In this document: in pieces, positions 1 through 8,048 of the stretch
Layout: each line of letters begins with the position of its first letter
Position numbering within the stretch: the stretch's first letter is position 1
DNA from: Tenericutes bacterium ADurb.BinA124
GTDB lineage: Bacteria; Bacillota_I; Bacilli_A; ML615J-28; CAG-698
Length of the DNA stretch: 64,000 nt
Reading direction: 5' to 3'
Assembly: GCA_002068415.1 (NCBI GenBank)
Contig: MVZM01000003.1
Location: 40,306-104,305 of the forward strand
Made by a program: the position numbers and the translations under genes
The notes under the pieces: model-generated
Database searches by the model: none
What the model was told of the DNA's origin: nothing
Seen by the model: the letters and a program-made list of their open reading frames with translations, nothing else

Positions 1-802
1 TGGTAACAGTCCCGACATAATATTGACCTTCTTGAGTTAAACTCAATAAAGAAGCACCACCAAGAGCATCTTGCGTAGTAACGGCAGCTGGTACCGATAC
101 TTCTTCAACTCTAAGCGGATAATCCCCCGTTTTAACATGATAGTAATTAACGGCGCCATAAGCATTAGTTAAATCAGCGGCATCGAGAGAACCTAGTTCG
201 GTATTAGAAGCCGAAGTCGGTAACTCATAAATAATGGGGGAATCACTGGACCCAGCCTTAATTACCGAAATTCTTGTAGAGTCGGCGGCATAGTATCTTA
301 TTGCTCCAGAATCCGACGTAATTGTTTCGCCTTTTGCATTCACAAACGAACTGACATCGCAACTCCAAAGTTTACCGGTCGAAAATAGTGTTGCTTCTTT
401 CCAGTAAATAACTAGTTTTTCACTATTTTTCGTTCGTATTTTTAAATTGAATTGAATATAACCACTGGCAGCACTGTCGTCGTAACCTTTAATTGTTTTA
501 CCATCAACTGAAGTATTGGCTTGATATTTAAAACTAGGATATTGGGGGGGATAATGAGTCGATTCAATGTCATAACCGTTGAAAAGATAACCATTGATAT
601 GTTCAGTCGATAAATTTGTAAACCAGTTAATTCCATCGAGTGACATATCTAAACCTTCACCGGCTGTTACCGTAGCACTAAAGGATTCAACCTTATTGGT
701 ATTATTTAAAGTAAACCAAGCGTAAGTTGTTGTTCCTAAAATGATAGCGGAGAAGACAATTAGTAAGATAGAAATAAAAATTTTATTTGTTATTTTTGGC
801 AT
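1..802 (-). CDS. Paralog 1 of a secreted TasA/camelysin-like protein family (C-terminus beyond the window start). N-terminus: MPKITNKIFISILLIVFSAIILGTTTYAWFTLNNT.
   Basis: Open frame running off the window start. ATG at 802 is preceded by SD GGGTGG. The N-terminal K-rich, hydrophobic, GTTTxAWFT signal resembles the SipW-cognate signal-peptide class (TasA: GGTxAxFxD). Shares the ISLDG and WFT motifs with the ORFs at 901..1815 and 1847..2821. Confidence 0.55.
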   Translation of the reverse strand, partial: MPKITNKIFISILLIVFSAIILGTTTYAWFTLNNTNKVESFSATVTAGEGLDMSLDGINWFTNLSTEHINGYLFNGYDIESTHYPPQYPSFKYQANTSVDGKTIKGYDDSAASGYIQFNLKIRTKNSEKLVIYWKEATLFSTGKLWSCDVSSFVNAKGETITSDSGAIRYYAADSTRISVIKAGSSDSPIIYELPTSASNTELGSLDAADLTNAYGAVNYYHVKTGDYPLRVEEVSVPAAVTTQDALGGASLLSLTQEGQYYVGTVT

Positions 803-900: not shown

Positions 901-1815
901 TTATGCGTTAGTGTTTTTGAATACTAAGCCAATTGATAAAGTATCATCTAAAATAGCGTTAAAAGCATTTTGATCCCAACCTTCTAACCAAATAACGACA
1001 CTTACTGAACCGGTCCAATTTTTGGCAGCTCCTGTTAAAGTTATTAATTCATTATTGTCTAGGTCAGCTGGATCAGTAACAGTATTAGGAATAGCTGCAC
1101 CTGCAGGAACTGTTTGCACTACACCTTTAGCTGCGTTATAAGATTTTTGACCGGCTGTTAAAGCTTCTAATTCCGCTTTGCTTTTTTGCCCTAAAACAGT
1201 ATTTCCTTTAGAATCAAAATTCTCGGCTAATTCATAAATTACTGGATTATCAGCGCCGCCCTTAATAGAAATACGAGCAGCATTGGCAGCATAACGAGGT
1301 AAGTTAGCATCTCCTGCGGTTACGCTAGGAGTAGTTGCTCCAACGGCATCTGTAAAGCTAGCATCAGCTGTCCATTGTTTTCCAGTTGAAGTAATCGTAG
1401 CATTATTCCAATAAATTTTCGGAGCTATATCGGTATCATCCTTAGAACGGAAGTAAAGAGTAAATTTAATATAGTGGGTTCCAGCAGCCTCATTAACGCC
1501 TGTTGCTCCATCCATTAATGTAAAAGCCAGTCCGTCTGTCGAAGTTACTAAATCTAATTTGAAAGTTGAAGCATATTTACCAGTGCCAGCAGCGAATAAA
1601 AATTCTTCAATTTTAGCTTCAGTAAGAGTTGTATACCAATTGGTTTGATCTAATGAAATTTCAATACCTTGACCAGCGGTAACAGTTGCATTGAAAGGTG
1701 ATACAGTAGCGGTATTACTTAAAGTGAACCACGCGAAAGTAGTGGTGCCAAGAGCGATAACTGCAAAAGCGACAGTTAAGATCGAAATAAATAATTTGTT
1801 TGTTAATTTTCTCAT
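901..1815 (-). CDS. Paralog 2, secreted TasA/camelysin-like protein (304 aa). SipW-cognate-type signal LGTTTFAWFTLSNT; C-terminal motif IWLEGWDQNAFNAI.
   Basis: ORF track. RBS AGGAGA is 7 nt upstream of the ATG at 1815. N-terminal signal and C-terminal WLEGWD block are shared with neighbouring paralogs. Thr/Ala/Gly-rich mature region typical of beta-rich fibre subunits. Confidence 0.6.
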   Translation of the reverse strand: MRKLTNKLFISILTVAFAVIALGTTTFAWFTLSNTATVSPFNATVTAGQGIEISLDQTNWYTTLTEAKIEEFLFAAGTGKYASTFKLDLVTSTDGLAFTLMDGATGVNEAAGTHYIKFTLYFRSKDDTDIAPKIYWNNATITSTGKQWTADASFTDAVGATTPSVTAGDANLPRYAANAARISIKGGADNPVIYELAENFDSKGNTVLGQKSKAELEALTAGQKSYNAAKGVVQTVPAGAAIPNTVTDPADLDNNELITLTGAAKNWTGSVSVVIWLEGWDQNAFNAILDDTLSIGLVFKNTNA

Positions 1816-1833: not shown

Positions 1834-1848
1834 TTTTTTTTTTTTTTT
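1834..1848 (-). repeat. Homopolymeric A15 tract (T15 on the plus strand) directly after the stop codon of paralog 3 and about 16 nt upstream of the paralog 2 RBS.
   Basis: Counted directly: 15 consecutive T at 1834..1848 on the plus strand. Confidence 0.9.
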
Positions 1849-2821
1849 AATCCGTGATGGACTTACCAGCCCGGAATTTTAATTGGATTCTAATTACATC
1901 ATTCACGATTGCATCGAAGCAATCTGCATCCCAACCTTCTAACCAAATATTCATGGTAACTTTACCAACATAATAAGTTTGGCCCTTACTATCTTTTTGG
2001 TCACTCACAATCAACTCCATAATCCTCGAGTTATCACTTACAGGAATGTAGGGGTTGTTTGGGGAAAATTTAGTTAGTTCATAAACCGTTTCGGGTTTCT
2101 GAGCTGGTGCTTCAATGATTCGACTCATTCGTTTACTAATGTAATCTAATGCACCGTACGAAACTCCGTATCCTCTGAGAGGATCTCCACTCGGATCAAT
2201 TATCACCTTTCTTAAAGATGAAGGAATCCGGGTGTCATAGATATTGTCATCGTGAACTTGTTCTACAAAAGCAATTCGCACTGCTTTACTAGCATAGTAA
2301 GTATTCCTTGTTCCTTCATGAACAACATCATTAATTGTATCCGTTCCATTAACGAAGGTCAGATCGGCCTTCCAACTTCTCCCGAGGGATACCACAAAGG
2401 TCCCATCACGTCCAGTATCAAATTCAACATCATTACTTATGTTATCAACGAGGTAAACAAATCGTTCAGCGGCTGTGGTGCGAAACCACATTGTGATAGC
2501 GACATAGTCACGGTTGGGGATAGCCTCCCCAAGACCGGTTGGACCTCCTGAACTGAAAGTTATACCATTGATAGAAGTAACATCATGCATTTGCAAGTTG
2601 GTTAACTGCTTAGCAATCAACTCACCCGGCAACTTGTTGTAGTAAGAAATACCATCTAAGGAAATTTGTAAGTCTTCGCCATTAGTGACATTAAGGACTA
2701 AGCCATCGGCGACACCCGTGTTGGACATCGTAATCCAAGCGAAGGTTACCGTCCCAAGCATGATTGCTGAAAGAGTAAGCGATAAAATGGATAATAGTAA
2801 TTTATTAACTAATTTGTTCAC
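1847..2821 (-). CDS. Paralog 3, secreted TasA/camelysin-like protein (324 aa). Signal LGTVTFAWITMSNT; C-terminal NIWLEGWDADCFDAI. GTG start.
   Basis: ORF track. GTG start with GGTGA SD. Same N- and C-terminal motif architecture as paralogs 1 and 2. Confidence 0.55.
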   Translation of the reverse strand: MNKLVNKLLLSILSLTLSAIMLGTVTFAWITMSNTGVADGLVLNVTNGEDLQISLDGISYYNKLPGELIAKQLTNLQMHDVTSINGITFSSGGPTGLGEAIPNRDYVAITMWFRTTAAERFVYLVDNISNDVEFDTGRDGTFVVSLGRSWKADLTFVNGTDTINDVVHEGTRNTYYASKAVRIAFVEQVHDDNIYDTRIPSSLRKVIIDPSGDPLRGYGVSYGALDYISKRMSRIIEAPAQKPETVYELTKFSPNNPYIPVSDNSRIMELIVSDQKDSKGQTYYVGKVTMNIWLEGWDADCFDAIVNDVIRIQLKFRAGKSITD

Positions 2822-2859: not shown

Positions 2860-3564
2860 CTATTCCTCAGCGCCTACAATATCAAATTTCATCTGAATCC
2901 TAATCATCCCCCCTAATATTGAATCGACACAATCCGGATCTTCACCTTCCAACCACATAATTACACTATATTTTTTATACATGTGGGGTCGGAGGTTGGC
3001 AATCTTTCCTCTCGTCACAATTTCATCATCGATGAAGTAATTAGCCTTCGGCATCTCTTTCGGGTAATCATAGGGAACCGTATCAGGCTTTTGATACAAA
3101 TACTCATCGGTATCATCTTCGATAATTAATATTCTAACGGCTTCATCAACATTTTTGTAAGTATCAGTTATTTTTAAATGATAACCAACATCCACGGTTT
3201 CACTGCCAATGTTCTTGACATAGAAGGTATAGGCAACATAACGATAATCTTCATCGATATAATCGCCATCCGTTGCTTTAATCTCCGATAGCTTTAACCA
3301 GGAATAAGTAATATCTTTCACATCGATAACGGGATTAGCTAACAATCTTGGGGAAGGAGCTAAGAATTTATCGTCACTAGAAAGGATGATGCCACGGGTG
3401 AATGAATCGGGGTCAATCGACATAACGAAGTTTCCGGCTTGTTGACCATAGAAGGTGATGATGGCAATGGCTATTGATAGAAACGCCGTAATCAGCAAAC
3501 CGATGGTCACAGCTGTTGTTCGGACAGCAAATTTTCTAACTCCAAGCATTTTGGAAAGCCGCAT
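2860..3564 (-). CDS. Paralog 4 (234 aa), first gene of the operon. Divergent N-terminus with a single TM anchor (TAVTIGLLITAFLSIAIAIITFY) instead of a cleavable SipW-type signal. Retains the family C-terminal block MWLEGEDPDCVDSI...IRIQMKF.
   Basis: ORF track. ATG at 3564 with SD AAAGGCGG. The C-terminal about 30 aa align to paralogs 2 and 3. Its position and membrane-anchored N-terminus suggest an anchoring or accessory subunit (TapA-like role, by analogy only). Confidence 0.5.
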   Translation of the reverse strand: MRLSKMLGVRKFAVRTTAVTIGLLITAFLSIAIAIITFYGQQAGNFVMSIDPDSFTRGIILSSDDKFLAPSPRLLANPVIDVKDITYSWLKLSEIKATDGDYIDEDYRYVAYTFYVKNIGSETVDVGYHLKITDTYKNVDEAVRILIIEDDTDEYLYQKPDTVPYDYPKEMPKANYFIDDEIVTRGKIANLRPHMYKKYSVIMWLEGEDPDCVDSILGGMIRIQMKFDIVGAEE

Positions 3565-3584
3565 TCAAACACCGCCTTTCTTTG

Positions 3585-3685
3585 TGGAAATAAAAAATAG
3601 CCAGTATCATTCTAATAATGACAACTGGCTACCATTTCAGGCCCTTTAGCTTTGCGTCCCTAGATTTCTCTAAGTTTGCCTTTTA
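3585..3685 (-). promoter_or_regulatory. c-di-GMP-I (GEMM) riboswitch, copy 1 (proximal to the operon), with a terminator-type expression platform.
   Basis: Minus-strand RNA: AAGGCAAACUUAGAGAAAUCUAGGGACGCAAAGCUAAAGGGCCUGAAAUGGUAGCCAGUUGUCAUUAUUAGAAUGAUACUGGCUAUUUUUUAUUU. The core GGCAAAC-N5-GAAA-N4-GGGACGCAAAGC matches the conserved GEMM-I aptamer (compare V. cholerae Vc2 GGCAAACCAUUCGAAAGAGUGGGACGCAAAGCC). It has a GNRA-capped P2 hairpin CUUAGA-GAAA-UCUAGG, then an 8-bp hairpin UAGCCAGU/ACUGGCUA followed by U6, which I read as an intrinsic terminator. Sits 20-30 nt upstream of the SD and ATG of the 2860..3564 gene. Confidence 0.8.
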
Positions 3686-3734
3686 CATATCTTCTTGATA
3701 AAAAGATAAATAAAACTTATTAAATTATATCCTT

Positions 3735-3835
3735 AAAGAAAGAAAAAAGCCAGTATCATTCTTACAATGACAACTGGCTACCATTTCAGGCCCTTTAGCT
3801 TTGCGTCCCTAGATTTCTCTAAGTTTGCCTTTGAA
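3735..3835 (-). promoter_or_regulatory. c-di-GMP-I (GEMM) riboswitch, copy 2 (distal). About 95% identical to copy 1 and also followed by a hairpin plus U-tract.
   Basis: Minus-strand RNA: AAAGGCAAACUUAGAGAAAUCUAGGGACGCAAAGCUAAAGGGCCUGAAAUGGUAGCCAGUUGUCAUUGUAAGAAUGAUACUGGCUUUUUUCUUUC. Same conserved core as copy 1. Tandem arrangement separated by about 65 nt. Confidence 0.8.
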
Positions 3836-3859
3836 CATTTTTCTATCTTAAGTGCCTCC

Positions 3860-3888
3860 ATTCTAACACACCAATAAAATCTTGTCAA
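3860..3888 (-). promoter_or_regulatory. Sigma-A-type promoter driving the tandem riboswitches and the paralog operon (-35 TTGACA at 3888..3883, 17-nt spacer, -10 TAGAAT at 3865..3860).
   Basis: Read on the minus strand: TTGACAagattttattggtgtgtTAGAAT, about 25 nt upstream of riboswitch copy 2. Confidence 0.55.
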
Positions 3889-3930
3889 CAAAAATACAAA
3901 AATAATTATAAATAGTTCAACTATAATGGG

Positions 3931-5430
3931 TTATTTCTTTTTGTCAACACTTTCTTCCGGTTCTTTTAAAAGTTTTCCCTTCCAAGATTGACCTTCGATA
4001 TAGGATTTCAAATCATCACCTGACATCGGATAACCAAAATAATATCCTTGAACGACATTAATACCAAAATTGCTAACTTTCTCCAGCATTTCGTAATTCT
4101 CCACTCCTTCAGAAATAACAACCTTTTGGTTATTACGAGCAAAACCAACAAGCAGGGTGGCAAATTTTTCCGTCATATAGGACTCTTGCGTATCGCTTAA
4201 GAAAGACCGATCCAGTTTAATGATGTCAATCGGCATTTTTTCCAGTTTGGCAAGAGTTGCAAAATCCAGACCAAAGCCGTCAATAGCAATTTTAAAACCG
4301 ACATCTTTAAGTTTTTGAATATTCACCATAATTTCATCATAGCGCTCAAACAAGGCAAACTCCACAATTTCCAAAGTGATATTGGAAGCTTGTAAACGGT
4401 ATTTGCGTAAAATCTTCAAGAAATCAGCAACCAAAGTTAAAACAATCAATTGTTTAGGGCTCAGGTTTAAGGATAAGCGTAATTCTAGTTCCGGAAAATC
4501 TTTTTTAATTTCAAAGTATTGTTTAATGAGGTTTTCAATGCCCCATAAACCAACCCAATAAATATCCCCGGATTGCTCCATGATATTGATAAATTGGTGA
4601 GGAGACAAAACACCATGTTCCGGATGATTCCACCTTAATAAGGCTTCCGCCCCATATAAAGTTCCGTCATCGACATTGATAATAGGTTGATAATAAAGCA
4701 AAAACTCTTTATTCTTCATGGCTGTTTTAATTTGATAATAATAAGCCAAGTTTTCAAATTCCGTTTCATTGATGTCTTCGGAATAGAGCATGAAATCATT
4801 TCCGCCCTTTTTCTTCAACAAATAAATGGAAATCTTTAGAGAATTAATTAATTGTTTTAAACTACTTCCATGTTTGGGGTAAAAGCAGACCGCCACACAA
4901 GCCGTGGGGGTCACAAAGGTATCACTATAAATTTTAATCGGCGTGCGAACAACTTCTAACAGTTTCTTCGCCACTTCCAAACTTTGCAAGCGGTCATAAT
5001 CACCTTTTAAGAAAACCAAGAATTCATCACCGGTTAAGCGTGCCATTTGTACACGCTTCGGCAAAACATGGCTGAGGTTTTGGGCAATTTTCTCTAAAGC
5101 CCGTTCCGCTTCCTTTTCCCCAAAGGCATTGATAATATCGGTAAATTTATCAATATCGACATAAATGAGGGCGAAGGTCGTTTCCAACGAGCCCTTGGCA
5201 ATATAGCCGGAAATGGCACTCGTCAATTCGGACTTCGACAATAAGCCTTCTAACAAAACCGTCTTCTCTTCACGGAACTTAGCTCGTTCGCGAAAAACCG
5301 AGCGAATTAAAAAATATCCGAGCGTCGCCGTAACTGCGAGGGCAATGATCGAAAAAAAGATATAGGCACCATCATTAAAGTTGGCAAGAAACATGGGATC
5401 ACCTCTTGTATATTGTATCACAATCATCAA
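3931..5430 (-). CDS. Membrane-anchored GGDEF-EAL domain protein (499 aa) with non-canonical motifs: TGDEF instead of GG(D/E)EF; EAL present (EALLRW) but DGFGLD instead of DDFGTG.
   Basis: ORF track. N-terminal TM helix; RLTGDEFLVFL; YGAEALLRW. Likely a c-di-GMP phosphodiesterase or a degenerate receptor. Confidence 0.75.
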   Translation of the reverse strand: MMIVIQYTRGDPMFLANFNDGAYIFFSIIALAVTATLGYFLIRSVFRERAKFREEKTVLLEGLLSKSELTSAISGYIAKGSLETTFALIYVDIDKFTDIINAFGEKEAERALEKIAQNLSHVLPKRVQMARLTGDEFLVFLKGDYDRLQSLEVAKKLLEVVRTPIKIYSDTFVTPTACVAVCFYPKHGSSLKQLINSLKISIYLLKKKGGNDFMLYSEDINETEFENLAYYYQIKTAMKNKEFLLYYQPIINVDDGTLYGAEALLRWNHPEHGVLSPHQFINIMEQSGDIYWVGLWGIENLIKQYFEIKKDFPELELRLSLNLSPKQLIVLTLVADFLKILRKYRLQASNITLEIVEFALFERYDEIMVNIQKLKDVGFKIAIDGFGLDFATLAKLEKMPIDIIKLDRSFLSDTQESYMTEKFATLLVGFARNNQKVVISEGVENYEMLEKVSNFGINVVQGYYFGYPMSGDDLKSYIEGQSWKGKLLKEPEESVDKKK

Positions 5431-5456: not shown

Positions 5457-8048
5457 TTATTTTTCTTTTGTTTTTGATTTCACTTTTATTTCTTTAGTTT
5501 TATTAATATTATACTCATTAATGAGTTTTAAAGCGACACTTTCGGGAACAGCGGCACTGATTAAATGCCCTTGAATGACATTACAGCCGCTTTTAACCAA
5601 AAATTGGTTTTGTTTATCATCTTCAACACCTTCCGCAATCACATCCAAGTCCAAGCTCTTGGCCATGGAAATAACTTTGGAAACAATAGCCCGCGAGAAT
5701 TTATCGGTATTGAGATGACGAACAAATTCCTTATCAATCTTAATGGTATCAATCGGTAAATCTTTTAAGTAGAGCATCGAACTGTAACCGGTCCCGAAGT
5801 CATCCAAATGAATATTAAAACCATGATTTTTCAAAAGCTTTAATTTTTCAATCACCGAGTCAAAATTAGTCATCAAGAAAGTTTCGGTGATTTCCACCGA
5901 AATGGCATGCGGTTTTAATTCAAAGCGGTCGTATATTTCCACAATCTCGCTGACAAACCCGGCTTGCAATAATTGAACTGGAGAAATATTGATGGAAATG
6001 TGCACATTATAAGGTTCAAATTCTTTCGCAATCCGGAAAGTATCTAAAATAACGAATTTACCGATTTCGATAATTAAGTTGTTTTGTTCAGCTAAGGCAA
6101 TAAAATGAGCCGGTGACTCCAATAAATACTTCGGATTATTCCAGCGAATTAAGGATTCAAAACCAACAATCCGCTCTTGTTCATTATCAAACTGCGGTTG
6201 CAAATACATGACAAATTCTTTTTCTTGAATGGCCTTGACCAAATCGGTTTCCATAATCTGTTCGCGGGTAATGTACTGTCCCAAACCGAGGTCATAAGTA
6301 ACATATTTAGCCGTCCGCGAGTTTTTGGCCCGTTTTAAAGCAACCATCGCATGATCATAAGCCATGGTTGGTGTTAAATTGCCATAGATTTCACTTTCAA
6401 TATTAAAGATTCCCATTTTCACATCCAAAATTAATAAGTTCTTATTAATTTCGACCGGATGCGCTAACAATTCGAGAGTGCTTTCCACCCATTTTTTAAC
6501 TTCATTAAAACTTTCAACGCGTTCAAACAAAACCACGAAGTTATCCGCTTCCGTATTAAAGAGCGTCGCATTCTTGTCTTTTAAGGATTCCTTAACAATA
6601 TTAGCAAGGGTAATTAAGGTTTCATCACCGATTTTCATCCCGAATAAATTATTGATGTTTTTAAAGGAACTGATATCAAAAGCAACCAAGGAATTAAGCA
6701 ATCCCAATGATTCCTCATTGTTAAACAAGTCCTTTAGTTTGGCTATTAAATAGTTTTTATTCGGTAATTTCGTCGTTTTTGTGTAGAGAGCCATATTCCG
6801 GTTCATCAAATAATCTTGTTCGCGGGCCGTAATATCTTCCCCTAACAAATAATAACCGAAGCCGGAGCGTAAGGGAATAAAGCGAATGAAGATTTCACTG
6901 CCAGAAATGGAAGTAAAGGAAGCCGTAAAGGGCCGTTGTTTGCGTAAATACGAAAGCACGGTCGTACTATCCACTTCGGTTTTAAAATCGCTTAAATATT
7001 GATAATCTTGATAGGACTGCAAATTGCTTTTACAAGTCTTATTAAAGTAGCGGATTTTCCCGCTGGCGGACACCCGAACAATATAGGGTTTGGAATAATA
7101 ATAAATCAAGCGCGCCGCTTCCACATCGGAGTTTTTCGTTCTTAGTAAATGATAAGTGCCAAATAAAACTACCGCAAACAAGAGCGCCACTAACACCAAA
7201 ACAATAATGAGCGACATCCCTAAATAACTCATGGAACTTAAAACATCAGTTTTTGCGAAAACATGGACCACAAACAAATGGCGGGTGGAAAAATCCTTTG
7301 ACAAAGGTGAATAAGCGAGGTAGGATTGTTTGCCATCAAAATTAACCATCGCTATTCCGGTTTTTCCGGCATAGAGATTGTCAACAATTTGGGCAATGTC
7401 TTCTTCGGCACTATTACCGCGGACATAATGTTCAAACAATTTATCACGGATAGTAAGGTGATCAATTTGGTAATTAATCAATCCGTCTTTACTAATGATG
7501 AAATACTGATTTTTGGGCGCATTGCTTACTTCAAGAAAGATGGGATCAAAATATTTAATGGCATCAAAAACAGCAATGTAATTGTCAATTTTGAAAAAGC
7601 CATAAAGGGTGGTATCGGTACTATCAATAAAGGCATCCGCAAACGCATAAATCGCTACCCTTTGATTATAATAGTCCGTTGACAAAAATTCTGTATTATA
7701 GAAATAATCAGTGCCATCAATAATGAAGCGATCCGCTTCCACACTACCAAAATACACATAGGGGTTGGTGCCGACCCTTATTTTCGCCTTTTGTGCATTT
7801 AATTGGCTGAGGATATCACCATCATTGGGATCGAGATTATTAATAACATCAGTTAATTTATCATAATCATAATTGATCTTTAAATCGACATTAAGGGCAA
7901 TCTTTTGATTAATGTAAAGCATGTTTTCCGCCGCTTTACCTTCGATAAAATGATCGGCAATGAAATAATAAGCTCCATAAGCGACCAAAGCGACGATTAT
8001 TAAGATGGCAGAGAACAAAATCGATATTTTAACGGTATAAGACTTCAT
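5457..8048 (-). CDS. Large membrane sensor protein (863 aa): signal-anchor, extracytoplasmic domain, second TM, degenerate GGDEF-like region, canonical EAL phosphodiesterase domain (ESLIRW...HLDDFGTGYSS).
   Basis: ORF track. EAL-domain motifs present. SD AGAGGAG 8 nt upstream of the ATG at 8048. Confidence 0.75.
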   Translation of the reverse strand: MKSYTVKISILFSAILIIVALVAYGAYYFIADHFIEGKAAENMLYINQKIALNVDLKINYDYDKLTDVINNLDPNDGDILSQLNAQKAKIRVGTNPYVYFGSVEADRFIIDGTDYFYNTEFLSTDYYNQRVAIYAFADAFIDSTDTTLYGFFKIDNYIAVFDAIKYFDPIFLEVSNAPKNQYFIISKDGLINYQIDHLTIRDKLFEHYVRGNSAEEDIAQIVDNLYAGKTGIAMVNFDGKQSYLAYSPLSKDFSTRHLFVVHVFAKTDVLSSMSYLGMSLIIVLVLVALLFAVVLFGTYHLLRTKNSDVEAARLIYYYSKPYIVRVSASGKIRYFNKTCKSNLQSYQDYQYLSDFKTEVDSTTVLSYLRKQRPFTASFTSISGSEIFIRFIPLRSGFGYYLLGEDITAREQDYLMNRNMALYTKTTKLPNKNYLIAKLKDLFNNEESLGLLNSLVAFDISSFKNINNLFGMKIGDETLITLANIVKESLKDKNATLFNTEADNFVVLFERVESFNEVKKWVESTLELLAHPVEINKNLLILDVKMGIFNIESEIYGNLTPTMAYDHAMVALKRAKNSRTAKYVTYDLGLGQYITREQIMETDLVKAIQEKEFVMYLQPQFDNEQERIVGFESLIRWNNPKYLLESPAHFIALAEQNNLIIEIGKFVILDTFRIAKEFEPYNVHISINISPVQLLQAGFVSEIVEIYDRFELKPHAISVEITETFLMTNFDSVIEKLKLLKNHGFNIHLDDFGTGYSSMLYLKDLPIDTIKIDKEFVRHLNTDKFSRAIVSKVISMAKSLDLDVIAEGVEDDKQNQFLVKSGCNVIQGHLISAAVPESVALKLINEYNINKTKEIKVKSKTKEK

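Follow-up and report, generated by a model that had tools for sequence, protein, structure and literature searches.

Two predicted c-di-GMP-I riboswitches in series in the leader of a paralogous gene operon from an Acholeplasma-like bacterium

Does a pair of nearly identical RNA elements in front of an operon act as one sensor consulted twice, or is the second copy a duplicate without regulatory meaning? The question is raised by a stretch of 64,000 nucleotides (nt) from Tenericutes bacterium ADurb.BinA124 (GenBank assembly GCA_002068415.1, contig MVZM01000003.1, positions 40,306 to 104,305), hereafter the window, whose own numbering is used throughout. An original prediction, made from the letters alone, had read its region 3585-3835 as two tandem GEMM-I riboswitches for cyclic di-guanosine monophosphate (c-di-GMP), each followed by its own transcription terminator. 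The analysis reported here leads us to put at about 85% the probability that the leader of a minus-strand operon holds two independent and complete c-di-GMP-I ON riboswitches in series. The aptamers and terminators are described first, followed by their conservation and the competing explanations, the operon that they precede, and the systems that they resemble.

Two aptamer-terminator units in a single leader

Under the curated thresholds of Rfam release 15, the whole 64-kb window yields four matches, namely two tRNAs and two aptamers of family RF01051 (c-di-GMP-I, or GEMM-I). Both aptamers lie on the minus strand, a point on which the original prediction was silent. The Rfam cmscan search places unit 1 at 3839..3766 with 60.2 bits (expectation value, E, 2.7e-09) and unit 2 at 3690..3617 with 64.2 bits (E 3e-10); each spans the full model (positions 1-87) and stands well above the gathering score of 35 bits, which bears out the class call. 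A covariance model of our own (R1), built from 99 aptamers of the related loci presented below, scores the two units at 86.3 and 89.3 bits, respectively. The core that had been quoted, GGCAAAC-N5-GAAA-N4-GGGACGCAAAGC, is matched letter for letter on the minus strand in both copies. Each unit also has the GAAA loop that forms the GNRA tetraloop of the first hairpin, and a CCUGAA/AUGG element. In an inferred mapping onto the numbering of Vc2 of Vibrio cholerae, the reference GEMM-I structure, the ligand-selectivity position (the equivalent of G20) is a G at minus-strand 3829 in unit 1 and 3680 in unit 2, the ACGCAAAGC junction with the equivalent of A47 is invariant in 99 of 99 aligned aptamers, and the C found 2-3 nt 3' of AGCCAGUU, at 3769 (unit 1) and 3620 (unit 2), is a candidate for C92. 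Family homology and the one selectivity nucleotide thus point to c-di-GMP as the likely ligand of both aptamers. In both units, the second hairpin of the aptamer (3781-3793 and 3632-3644, minus strand) is of minimal size, with 0 nt in place of the 13-nt distal insertion of the Rfam consensus, and its loop is closed right at the tetraloop-receptor-like CCUGAA/AUGG element; across the relatives this loop measures 0-10 nt.

Each aptamer runs into an intrinsic terminator, identified through folding and manual reading and not through the terminator scan. Terminator 1 (3743..3780, minus strand) folds at -18.1 kcal/mol (z -4.68) and terminator 2 (3592..3631, minus strand) at -19.5 kcal/mol (z -5.11); in neither case was any of 200 shuffled sequences as stable. 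The first consists of the 5' arm AGCCAGU(U)GUCAUU (3779-3766), the loop GUAAG, the 3' arm AAUGAUACUGGCU (3760-3748) and a U-run reaching 3743, and the second of UAGCCAGU(U)GUCAUU, the loop AUUAG, the 3' arm AAUGAUACUGGCUA and a U6 run (3597-3592). An 8-bp hairpin followed by six U residues had been proposed for each copy. This describes unit 2, whose outer hairpin UAGCCAGU...ACUGGCUA is followed by U6 (3631..3592), but not unit 1, where the outer stem counts 7 bp (AGCCAGU/ACUGGCU) and UUUUU(U)C comes after it. Beyond one bulged U, six further pairs (GUCAUU/AAUGAU) form an inner stem in either unit, which brings the whole hairpin to 13-14 bp, that is 7-8 outer pairs, the bulged U and 6 inner pairs.

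What makes these hairpins more than neighbours of the aptamers is the strand that they share. In the Rfam alignment, the aptamer 3' strand GGUAGCCAGUUGUCAUU closes the second helix and provides the residues that come after it; the same GGUAGCCAGUUGUCAUU doubles as the 5' arm of the hairpin formed with the downstream AAUGAUACUGGCU(A). Bases 3780-3766 and 3631-3617 thus belong at once to the Rfam-aligned aptamer and to the terminator stem, as the original prediction had it when it let the 3' part of the aptamer overlap the hairpin. Since the aptamer 3' strand is the terminator 5' arm, ligand binding and termination should be mutually exclusive. In the ligand-free minimum free energy fold of each whole unit, the first aptamer hairpin is kept, the terminator is formed and the second aptamer helix is lost. 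With the terminator as the ligand-free ground state, c-di-GMP should therefore turn transcription on, and each unit is predicted to be a transcriptional ON switch in which c-di-GMP prevents termination.

Both units lie in one leader. A sigma-70-type promoter-like site (3860..3888, minus strand; TTGACA-17 nt-TAGAAT) with 11 of 12 consensus matches and an extended -10 element, a TG preceding the -10 hexamer, is the sole strong minus-strand site between the upstream gene and the start of the first open reading frame (ORF), and transcription would be expected to start some 7-10 nt downstream of it, at roughly 3850. A promoter between the two units was considered and rejected, since the minus-strand pattern scan found no promoter-like site there, and no minus-strand ORF of at least 50 amino acids (aa) occurs in the leader or in the inter-unit spacer. 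The latter (3691..3742, minus strand) is AT-rich and unlike the sequence 3' of unit 2. Past terminator 2 come, by direct reading and from the ORF, a ribosome-binding site, AAAGGCGGUG (3579-3570), and the ATG at 3564-3562 (together 3562..3579, minus strand). Two aptamers 149 nt apart, each with its own expression platform, hence share one 5' untranslated region with neither gene nor promoter between them, and the RF01051 matches, the folds, the alignment of the units and the single promoter-like site agree with the claim of two complete aptamer-terminator units in one leader. A second near-consensus site, TTGACA-16-TATAGT (3947..3920, minus strand), overlaps the last codons and the stop codon (3933-3931) of the upstream gene, which encodes a GGDEF-EAL protein.

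These elements suggest the following course of events. Transcription would probably start from the TTGACA-17-TGnTAGAAT site (3888-3860). In the absence of ligand, GGUAGCCAGUUGUCAUU would pair with AAUGAUACUGGCU(A), and the resulting 13-14 bp hairpin with its U-run would end transcription. Binding of c-di-GMP would instead lock the closing helix together with the second helix of the aptamer and sequester GGUAGCCAGUUGUCAUU, letting the polymerase proceed. Read-through would have to clear two such checkpoints, 149 nt apart, and because they stand in series the output should be roughly proportional to the squared occupancy of the aptamers; compared with a single copy, the doublet would lower the basal leak and sharpen the threshold. 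Four or more paralogs would be translated from the read-through mRNA, and all of them have a membrane helix or signal peptide.

Conservation among related loci and competing explanations

Whether this design has been maintained can be judged from 80 related loci (labelled up to L080), obtained by scanning one genome per species and belonging to Acholeplasmataceae-related bacteria. Nearly all of them share a gene order of ~235, ~324 and ~305 aa. Model R1 detects 131 aptamers in the window and the 80 loci, all on the coding strand. Over 128 distinct related aptamers, 98% of the structure cells are paired, and each of the six pairs of the first hairpin shows two-sided changes in some sequences. 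Covariation scores 0.327 in the real alignment; shuffled alignments give 0.135 (none of 500 reaches the real score) and slid controls at most 0.085. A hairpin with the aptamer GCCAG in its 5' arm, followed by a T-run, is present in 115 of the 125 testable units, with a median of -16.2 kcal/mol, and most of the remaining 10 look like slightly imperfect versions of the terminator. These counts come from a fold-based test, used in place of a first regular expression that was too strict on the CTGGC arm and found 80 of 125. Given the overlapping terminator in 115 of 125 units, the predicted ON-switch design is, as read from these sequences, a conserved property of this riboswitch lineage.

The number of copies is not conserved to the same extent. 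Counted directly upstream of the ~235-aa first gene in the 63 loci with enough sequence, the riboswitch is absent from 21 loci and present once in 16, twice in 15 (window included), three times in nine and four times in two, with a median array period of 129 nt over the same 63 loci. The two quadruple arrays, L005:3764-4201 (OY781090.1) and L026:3737-4188 (JAIOQX010000003.1), lie ahead of the orthologous operon; their four aptamers each exceed the Rfam gathering score, and each is followed by its own hairpin and T-run. In the nine copy-less loci that were tested, Rfam found no known RNA family. In several genomes the cluster occurs twice, and riboswitches accompany only one of the two. Many loci (e.g., L010:12741, L024:11941, L061:11789/11904 and L077:8002/8169/8305) also have, ~6-6.8 kb downstream of the third paralog, a single, double or triple copy of a second sequence subtype of the riboswitch (…UUUGGCAAA…GUUGCAUCU), which in several of them precedes a protein of ~240-255 aa distantly related to the paralog family. 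The counterpart region of the window would fall past its left edge.

Of the explanations that compete with two selected switches, the one that survives best, unlikely as we hold it to be, is that the second copy is a recent neutral duplicate, or a product of ongoing gene conversion, which adds no regulatory property. The original prediction had itself taken the near-identity of the units as a sign of recent duplication or concerted evolution. The near-identity is real: from AAAGGCAAAC to ACTGGCT, 83 of 85 positions agree (97.6%), both differences fall in the terminator loop, and the aptamer proper is identical in the two units. Of the 81 arrayed units in the family, 36 most closely resemble a unit of their own array, a result that speaks for some homogenisation or lineage-specific duplication and that is only partly informative, as the units are short and strongly constrained. 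The variation from 0 to 4 copies among lineages goes in the same direction. However, a recent event is not required. Identity between the units drops to 88% over a 136-column alignment because their flanks are unrelated, and sequence similarity thus stops at the functional 85 nt. Over aptamer plus terminator, the window units are 92% identical to each other and 94% and 92% identical to the units of L008 and L002, although the encoded proteins of these distant genomes share only 37% and 54% identity, respectively, with those of the window. Moreover, the nearest relatives (L002, L003, L004 and L008) all have doublets, units correspond position by position in L003/L004, L048/L055 and L023/L032, and every copy has an intact terminator, as expected if each is under selection. 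Unrelated flanks, doublets in the nearest relatives and the 92-94% identity to distant units together point to a doublet that is old and maintained by purifying selection, so that constraint would account for most of the similarity of the units. Elsewhere in the family, copies appear now and then to have been gained, lost or homogenised in particular lineages.

It is less probable still that the hairpins with their U-runs are constitutive terminators or attenuators, the aptamers acting as an OFF switch, through RNA stability or as a decoy for c-di-GMP. The terminator is indeed the predicted ground state without ligand, and the short leader RNAs left by termination, their first hairpin intact, would build up and might in principle serve a separate function. 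Two constitutive terminators would, however, silence a conserved multi-gene operon, and the sharing of one strand by terminator and aptamer in 115 of 125 units reproduces the geometry of a validated ON switch, Bc3-5. An OFF switch would need a bound fold that frees a terminator strand, and it was rejected since no such alternative pairing is present.

Least probable of the three is that the ligand of the aptamers is 3'3'-cyclic GMP-AMP (3'3'-cGAMP). This does occur among GEMM-I variants, of which those with A at the selectivity position bind cyclic AMP-GMP (c-AMP-GMP; PMC9481103), and a few related aptamers have an A there. Both window aptamers, by contrast, have G at this position (GGCAAAC), and two GGDEF-EAL genes, that is, genes for c-di-GMP enzymes, lie next to the operon; a cGAMP sensor was rejected on these two grounds. 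The related aptamers in question read AGCAAA, with A for G before GCAAA, at L023:4131-4208, L025:8991-9068, L044:12034-12110 and L047:12616-12693, a change at the position that shifts GEMM-I selectivity towards 3'3'-cGAMP. Finally, a repeat or mobile element was dismissed, as the position of the array is conserved across genomes.

The regulated operon and its surroundings

Two predicted ON switches in series raise the question of what they would control. Downstream lie four paralogous minus-strand ORFs (E 1e-33 to 1e-100 with a hidden Markov model of the family). The first (2860..3564, 234 aa, E 1.4e-33) is a divergent member with an N-terminal membrane helix and the C-terminal MWLEGEDPDC; the second (1847..2821, 324 aa, E 1.7e-75) has GTVTFAWITMSNT after its membrane helix and IWLEGWD near its C-terminus; the third (901..1815, 304 aa) reads GTTTFAWFTLSNT ... 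IWLEGWD; and the fourth (1..802, MPKITNKIF...GTTTYAWFTLNNT, E 1.2e-63) extends past the window edge. All four share an N-terminal membrane helix, followed in three of them by GT(T/V)T(F/Y)AW(F/I)T, and a C-terminal (I/M)WLEG(W/E)D motif. Homologs at E <=0.001 number 291, from genomes and metagenome-assembled genomes of Acholeplasmataceae, Acholeplasmatales, Mycoplasmatota or "Tenericutes", and those that are named are all hypothetical proteins, bar one with a JGI "FliL" label. The most conserved block of the family, ALGTTTFAWF at the end of the membrane helix, reaches a mean column conservation of 0.96, against 0.74 for the next ten residues.

The AlphaFold model of gene 3 shows a confident beta-sandwich core (overall predicted local distance difference test, pLDDT, 85.7) in which the conserved N-terminal segment is the only poorly packed part (pLDDT ~50-60). 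The nearest folds of the core, all weak matches, are donor-strand-complemented fibre subunits, TasA among them; the class also comprises archaeal bundling pili and threads and chaperone-usher pilins. Modelling the mature domain alone raised the pLDDT to 89.4, and its fold matches were still not significant. Pfam family PF12389 (Peptidase_M73, TasA/camelysin) matches no window protein at E up to 0.1 and gives sub-threshold matches to 8 of the 47 members of the family, the best at E 0.0052. TIGR04088 (SipW-dependent-type signal peptide) is the only NCBIfam family to match more than one member, in 6 of 47 and always under its cutoff (best E 0.021); in the 304-aa protein it aligns to residues 12-43 with 7.7 bits (E 4.1), under the cutoff of 19. 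Folds and motifs therefore argue weakly, yet all in one direction, for TasA-like donor-strand fibres. Our best guess, with odds that hardly reach even, is that these are TasA-like, SipW-processed fibre or matrix proteins, and they should not be filed in the TasA family. In broader terms, the operon product is most likely a set of secreted or surface fibre or matrix proteins made at high c-di-GMP.

Relatives show what may follow the paralogs. In L029, L004, L003, L005 and L024 they are followed by a gene for a SipW/archaeal-type signal peptidase I of ~221-251 aa, with SipW matches at E 1e-17 to 1e-24. Against the TIGR02228 cutoff (archaeal-type signal peptidase I, 51.85 bits), L029, L004 and L003 score above it (70.2, 61.0 and 52.0 bits), L005 on either side of it (51.8 and 55.6-55.9 bits) and L024 under it (45.7 bits); in the first three the SipW matches lie at E 1e-19 to 1e-24. 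L003 and L004 represent the four-paralog lineage nearest to the window, and by synteny the window operon would continue past the edge into such a peptidase. Beyond the paralogs, the operon of the relatives (L029:7081-12648, L005:6987-12571, L024:7012-11881, L004:8159-12344) comprises the SipW-type peptidase, an AAA_5 ATPase of ~511 aa, a DUF2357 protein of ~620 aa and a protein of ~250 aa; AAA_5 and DUF2357 form a McrBC-like pair. A second SipW-like peptidase closes the operon in L029 and L005, and in L024 a protein of ~236 aa itself gives a weak SipW match.

On the other side of the leader, two minus-strand genes, identified by their Pfam domains, encode GGDEF-EAL proteins of 863 aa (5457-8048) and 499 aa (3931-5430), with EAL matches at E 5.5e-58 and 3.6e-64 and GGDEF matches at E 5e-19 and 3e-20. 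Their GGDEF signatures are degenerate (TGDEF, ADNF) and EAL/ESL is retained, which suggests that both act on c-di-GMP as phosphodiesterases. At least two relatives show the same synteny of this gene pair with the riboswitch operon, namely L005, where the domains were confirmed, and L004, as judged from ORFs of matching size. The arrangement hints at a local negative control of the switch.

Several points weigh against the picture of a serial ON switch and its exported products. The ligand specificity of the predicted switch is drawn from homology and one selectivity nucleotide, and the terminator scan called neither hairpin, the bulged stem and the loop size falling outside its rules. The promoter is a consensus match, and read-through from the upstream GGDEF-EAL gene is possible; as the scan found no terminator-like site after the stop codon of that gene, such read-through would also be riboswitch-gated. 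As for the proteins, the window paralogs match no Pfam or NCBIfam family at cutoff, a profile search of PDB sequences with them returned nothing even at E 10, and their function is weakly supported. Lastly, the window ends inside the fourth paralog, and the peptidase gene is not inside it.

With these points in mind, we tentatively propose a wider scenario, to which we give somewhat less than even odds. The tandem switch would control a surface-fibre or matrix system of the wall-less Acholeplasmataceae that is induced by c-di-GMP and hitherto undescribed, built from three to four paralogous subunits of a new family, served by dedicated SipW/archaeal-type peptidases and assembled by donor-strand exchange via the conserved post-cleavage segment, with a threshold set by 0-4 riboswitch copies. 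Acholeplasma laidlawii, unlike other mollicutes, has 14 GGDEF/EAL proteins (PMC2408644). Our literature searches found no work linking Acholeplasma, c-di-GMP and a riboswitch, or SipW and a c-di-GMP riboswitch, and no described c-di-GMP effector or phenotype for Acholeplasma-like bacteria. The locus would single out a conserved operon, with uncharacterised exported proteins and SipW-type peptidases, as the principal output through which these organisms read c-di-GMP by riboswitch. What is known of tandem riboswitches is unchanged by it; its value lies in the regulated operon and in the copy-number series, since 0 to 4 copies in front of one orthologous operon amount to a natural test of tandem number against threshold and leak. 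Furthermore, the compact and near-identical units (~105 nt each) could be convenient parts for c-di-GMP reporters.

Comparison with known systems

At the level of the single aptamer, the window units share with Vc2 the conserved core, the GAAA tetraloop of the first hairpin, a receptor-bearing second hairpin and the G at the selectivity position. They differ from it by their minimal second hairpin and by an expression platform that is an overlapping intrinsic terminator. At the level of the array, the tandem glycine riboswitch provides an instructive contrast, as its two aptamers contact each other and feed a single expression platform. Repeating a sensor of one ligand is a means of sharpening the dose response that the window element would have in common with both the tandem glycine and the tandem thiamine pyrophosphate (TPP) riboswitches. 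Like the tandem TPP element and unlike the glycine one, it consists of two autonomous switches.

The closest counterpart is Bc3-5, an experimentally tested triple-tandem c-di-GMP-I riboswitch in the 5' untranslated region of cspABCDE in Bacillus thuringiensis CT-43 (PMC4759541). Its terminator consumes the ligand-contact C, the 3' strand of P1 and part of the 3' strand of P3, which gives an ON logic, and read-through becomes progressively more stringent and more digital as one copy is extended to two and then three (PMC4759541). In both systems, complete and highly similar aptamer-terminator units follow each other head to tail in one leader, with the same competition between terminator and aptamer, and the genes downstream of Bc3-5 encode cell-surface proteins. 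The window element has two copies instead of three, its host is Acholeplasma-like and wall-less instead of a Bacillus, its proteins are unrelated and have no cell-wall anchor motifs, and its function as a switch is predicted where that of Bc3-5 was tested. By analogy with Bc3-5 (PMC4759541) and with tandems of this kind in general (PMC9481103), we infer that the more digital response anticipated by the original prediction is to be expected here as well.

The design itself is a known one. In the survey of Sherlock et al. (2022; PMC9481103), c-di-GMP-I riboswitches account for more natural tandems than any other class, 347 of them doublets and 12 triplets, and a 2025 survey of complete riboswitches arranged in tandem again reports an enrichment of c-di-GMP (PMC12452182). 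The window locus is one more example of that class and falls within the category of "multiple expression platforms, pseudo-cooperative" tandems (PMC9481103). The four-copy arrays of its relatives L005 and L026 go further, as the 2022 survey mentions only doublets and triplets (PMC9481103).

For the operon, the nearest parallels are tapA-sipW-tasA of Bacillus subtilis and calY/sipW of B. cereus, in which exported paralogs likewise lie beside a dedicated archaeal-type signal peptidase, seen here in the relatives (PMC9674648, PMC4292775, PMC10269814). The G-T-x-A/aromatic motif at the end of the signal peptide of the window paralogs resembles a SipW-type site, and TasA has an aromatic residue two positions past the SipW cleavage site (PMC10269814). 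Unlike the products of tapA-sipW-tasA, the window proteins have no significant sequence match to TasA or camelysin. Their host is wall-less, and the operons of their relatives comprise two peptidase genes and the AAA_5/DUF2357 pair. Finally, where SinR controls tapA-sipW-tasA, control in the window would be exerted by a c-di-GMP riboswitch, likely read twice before the first paralog is reached.

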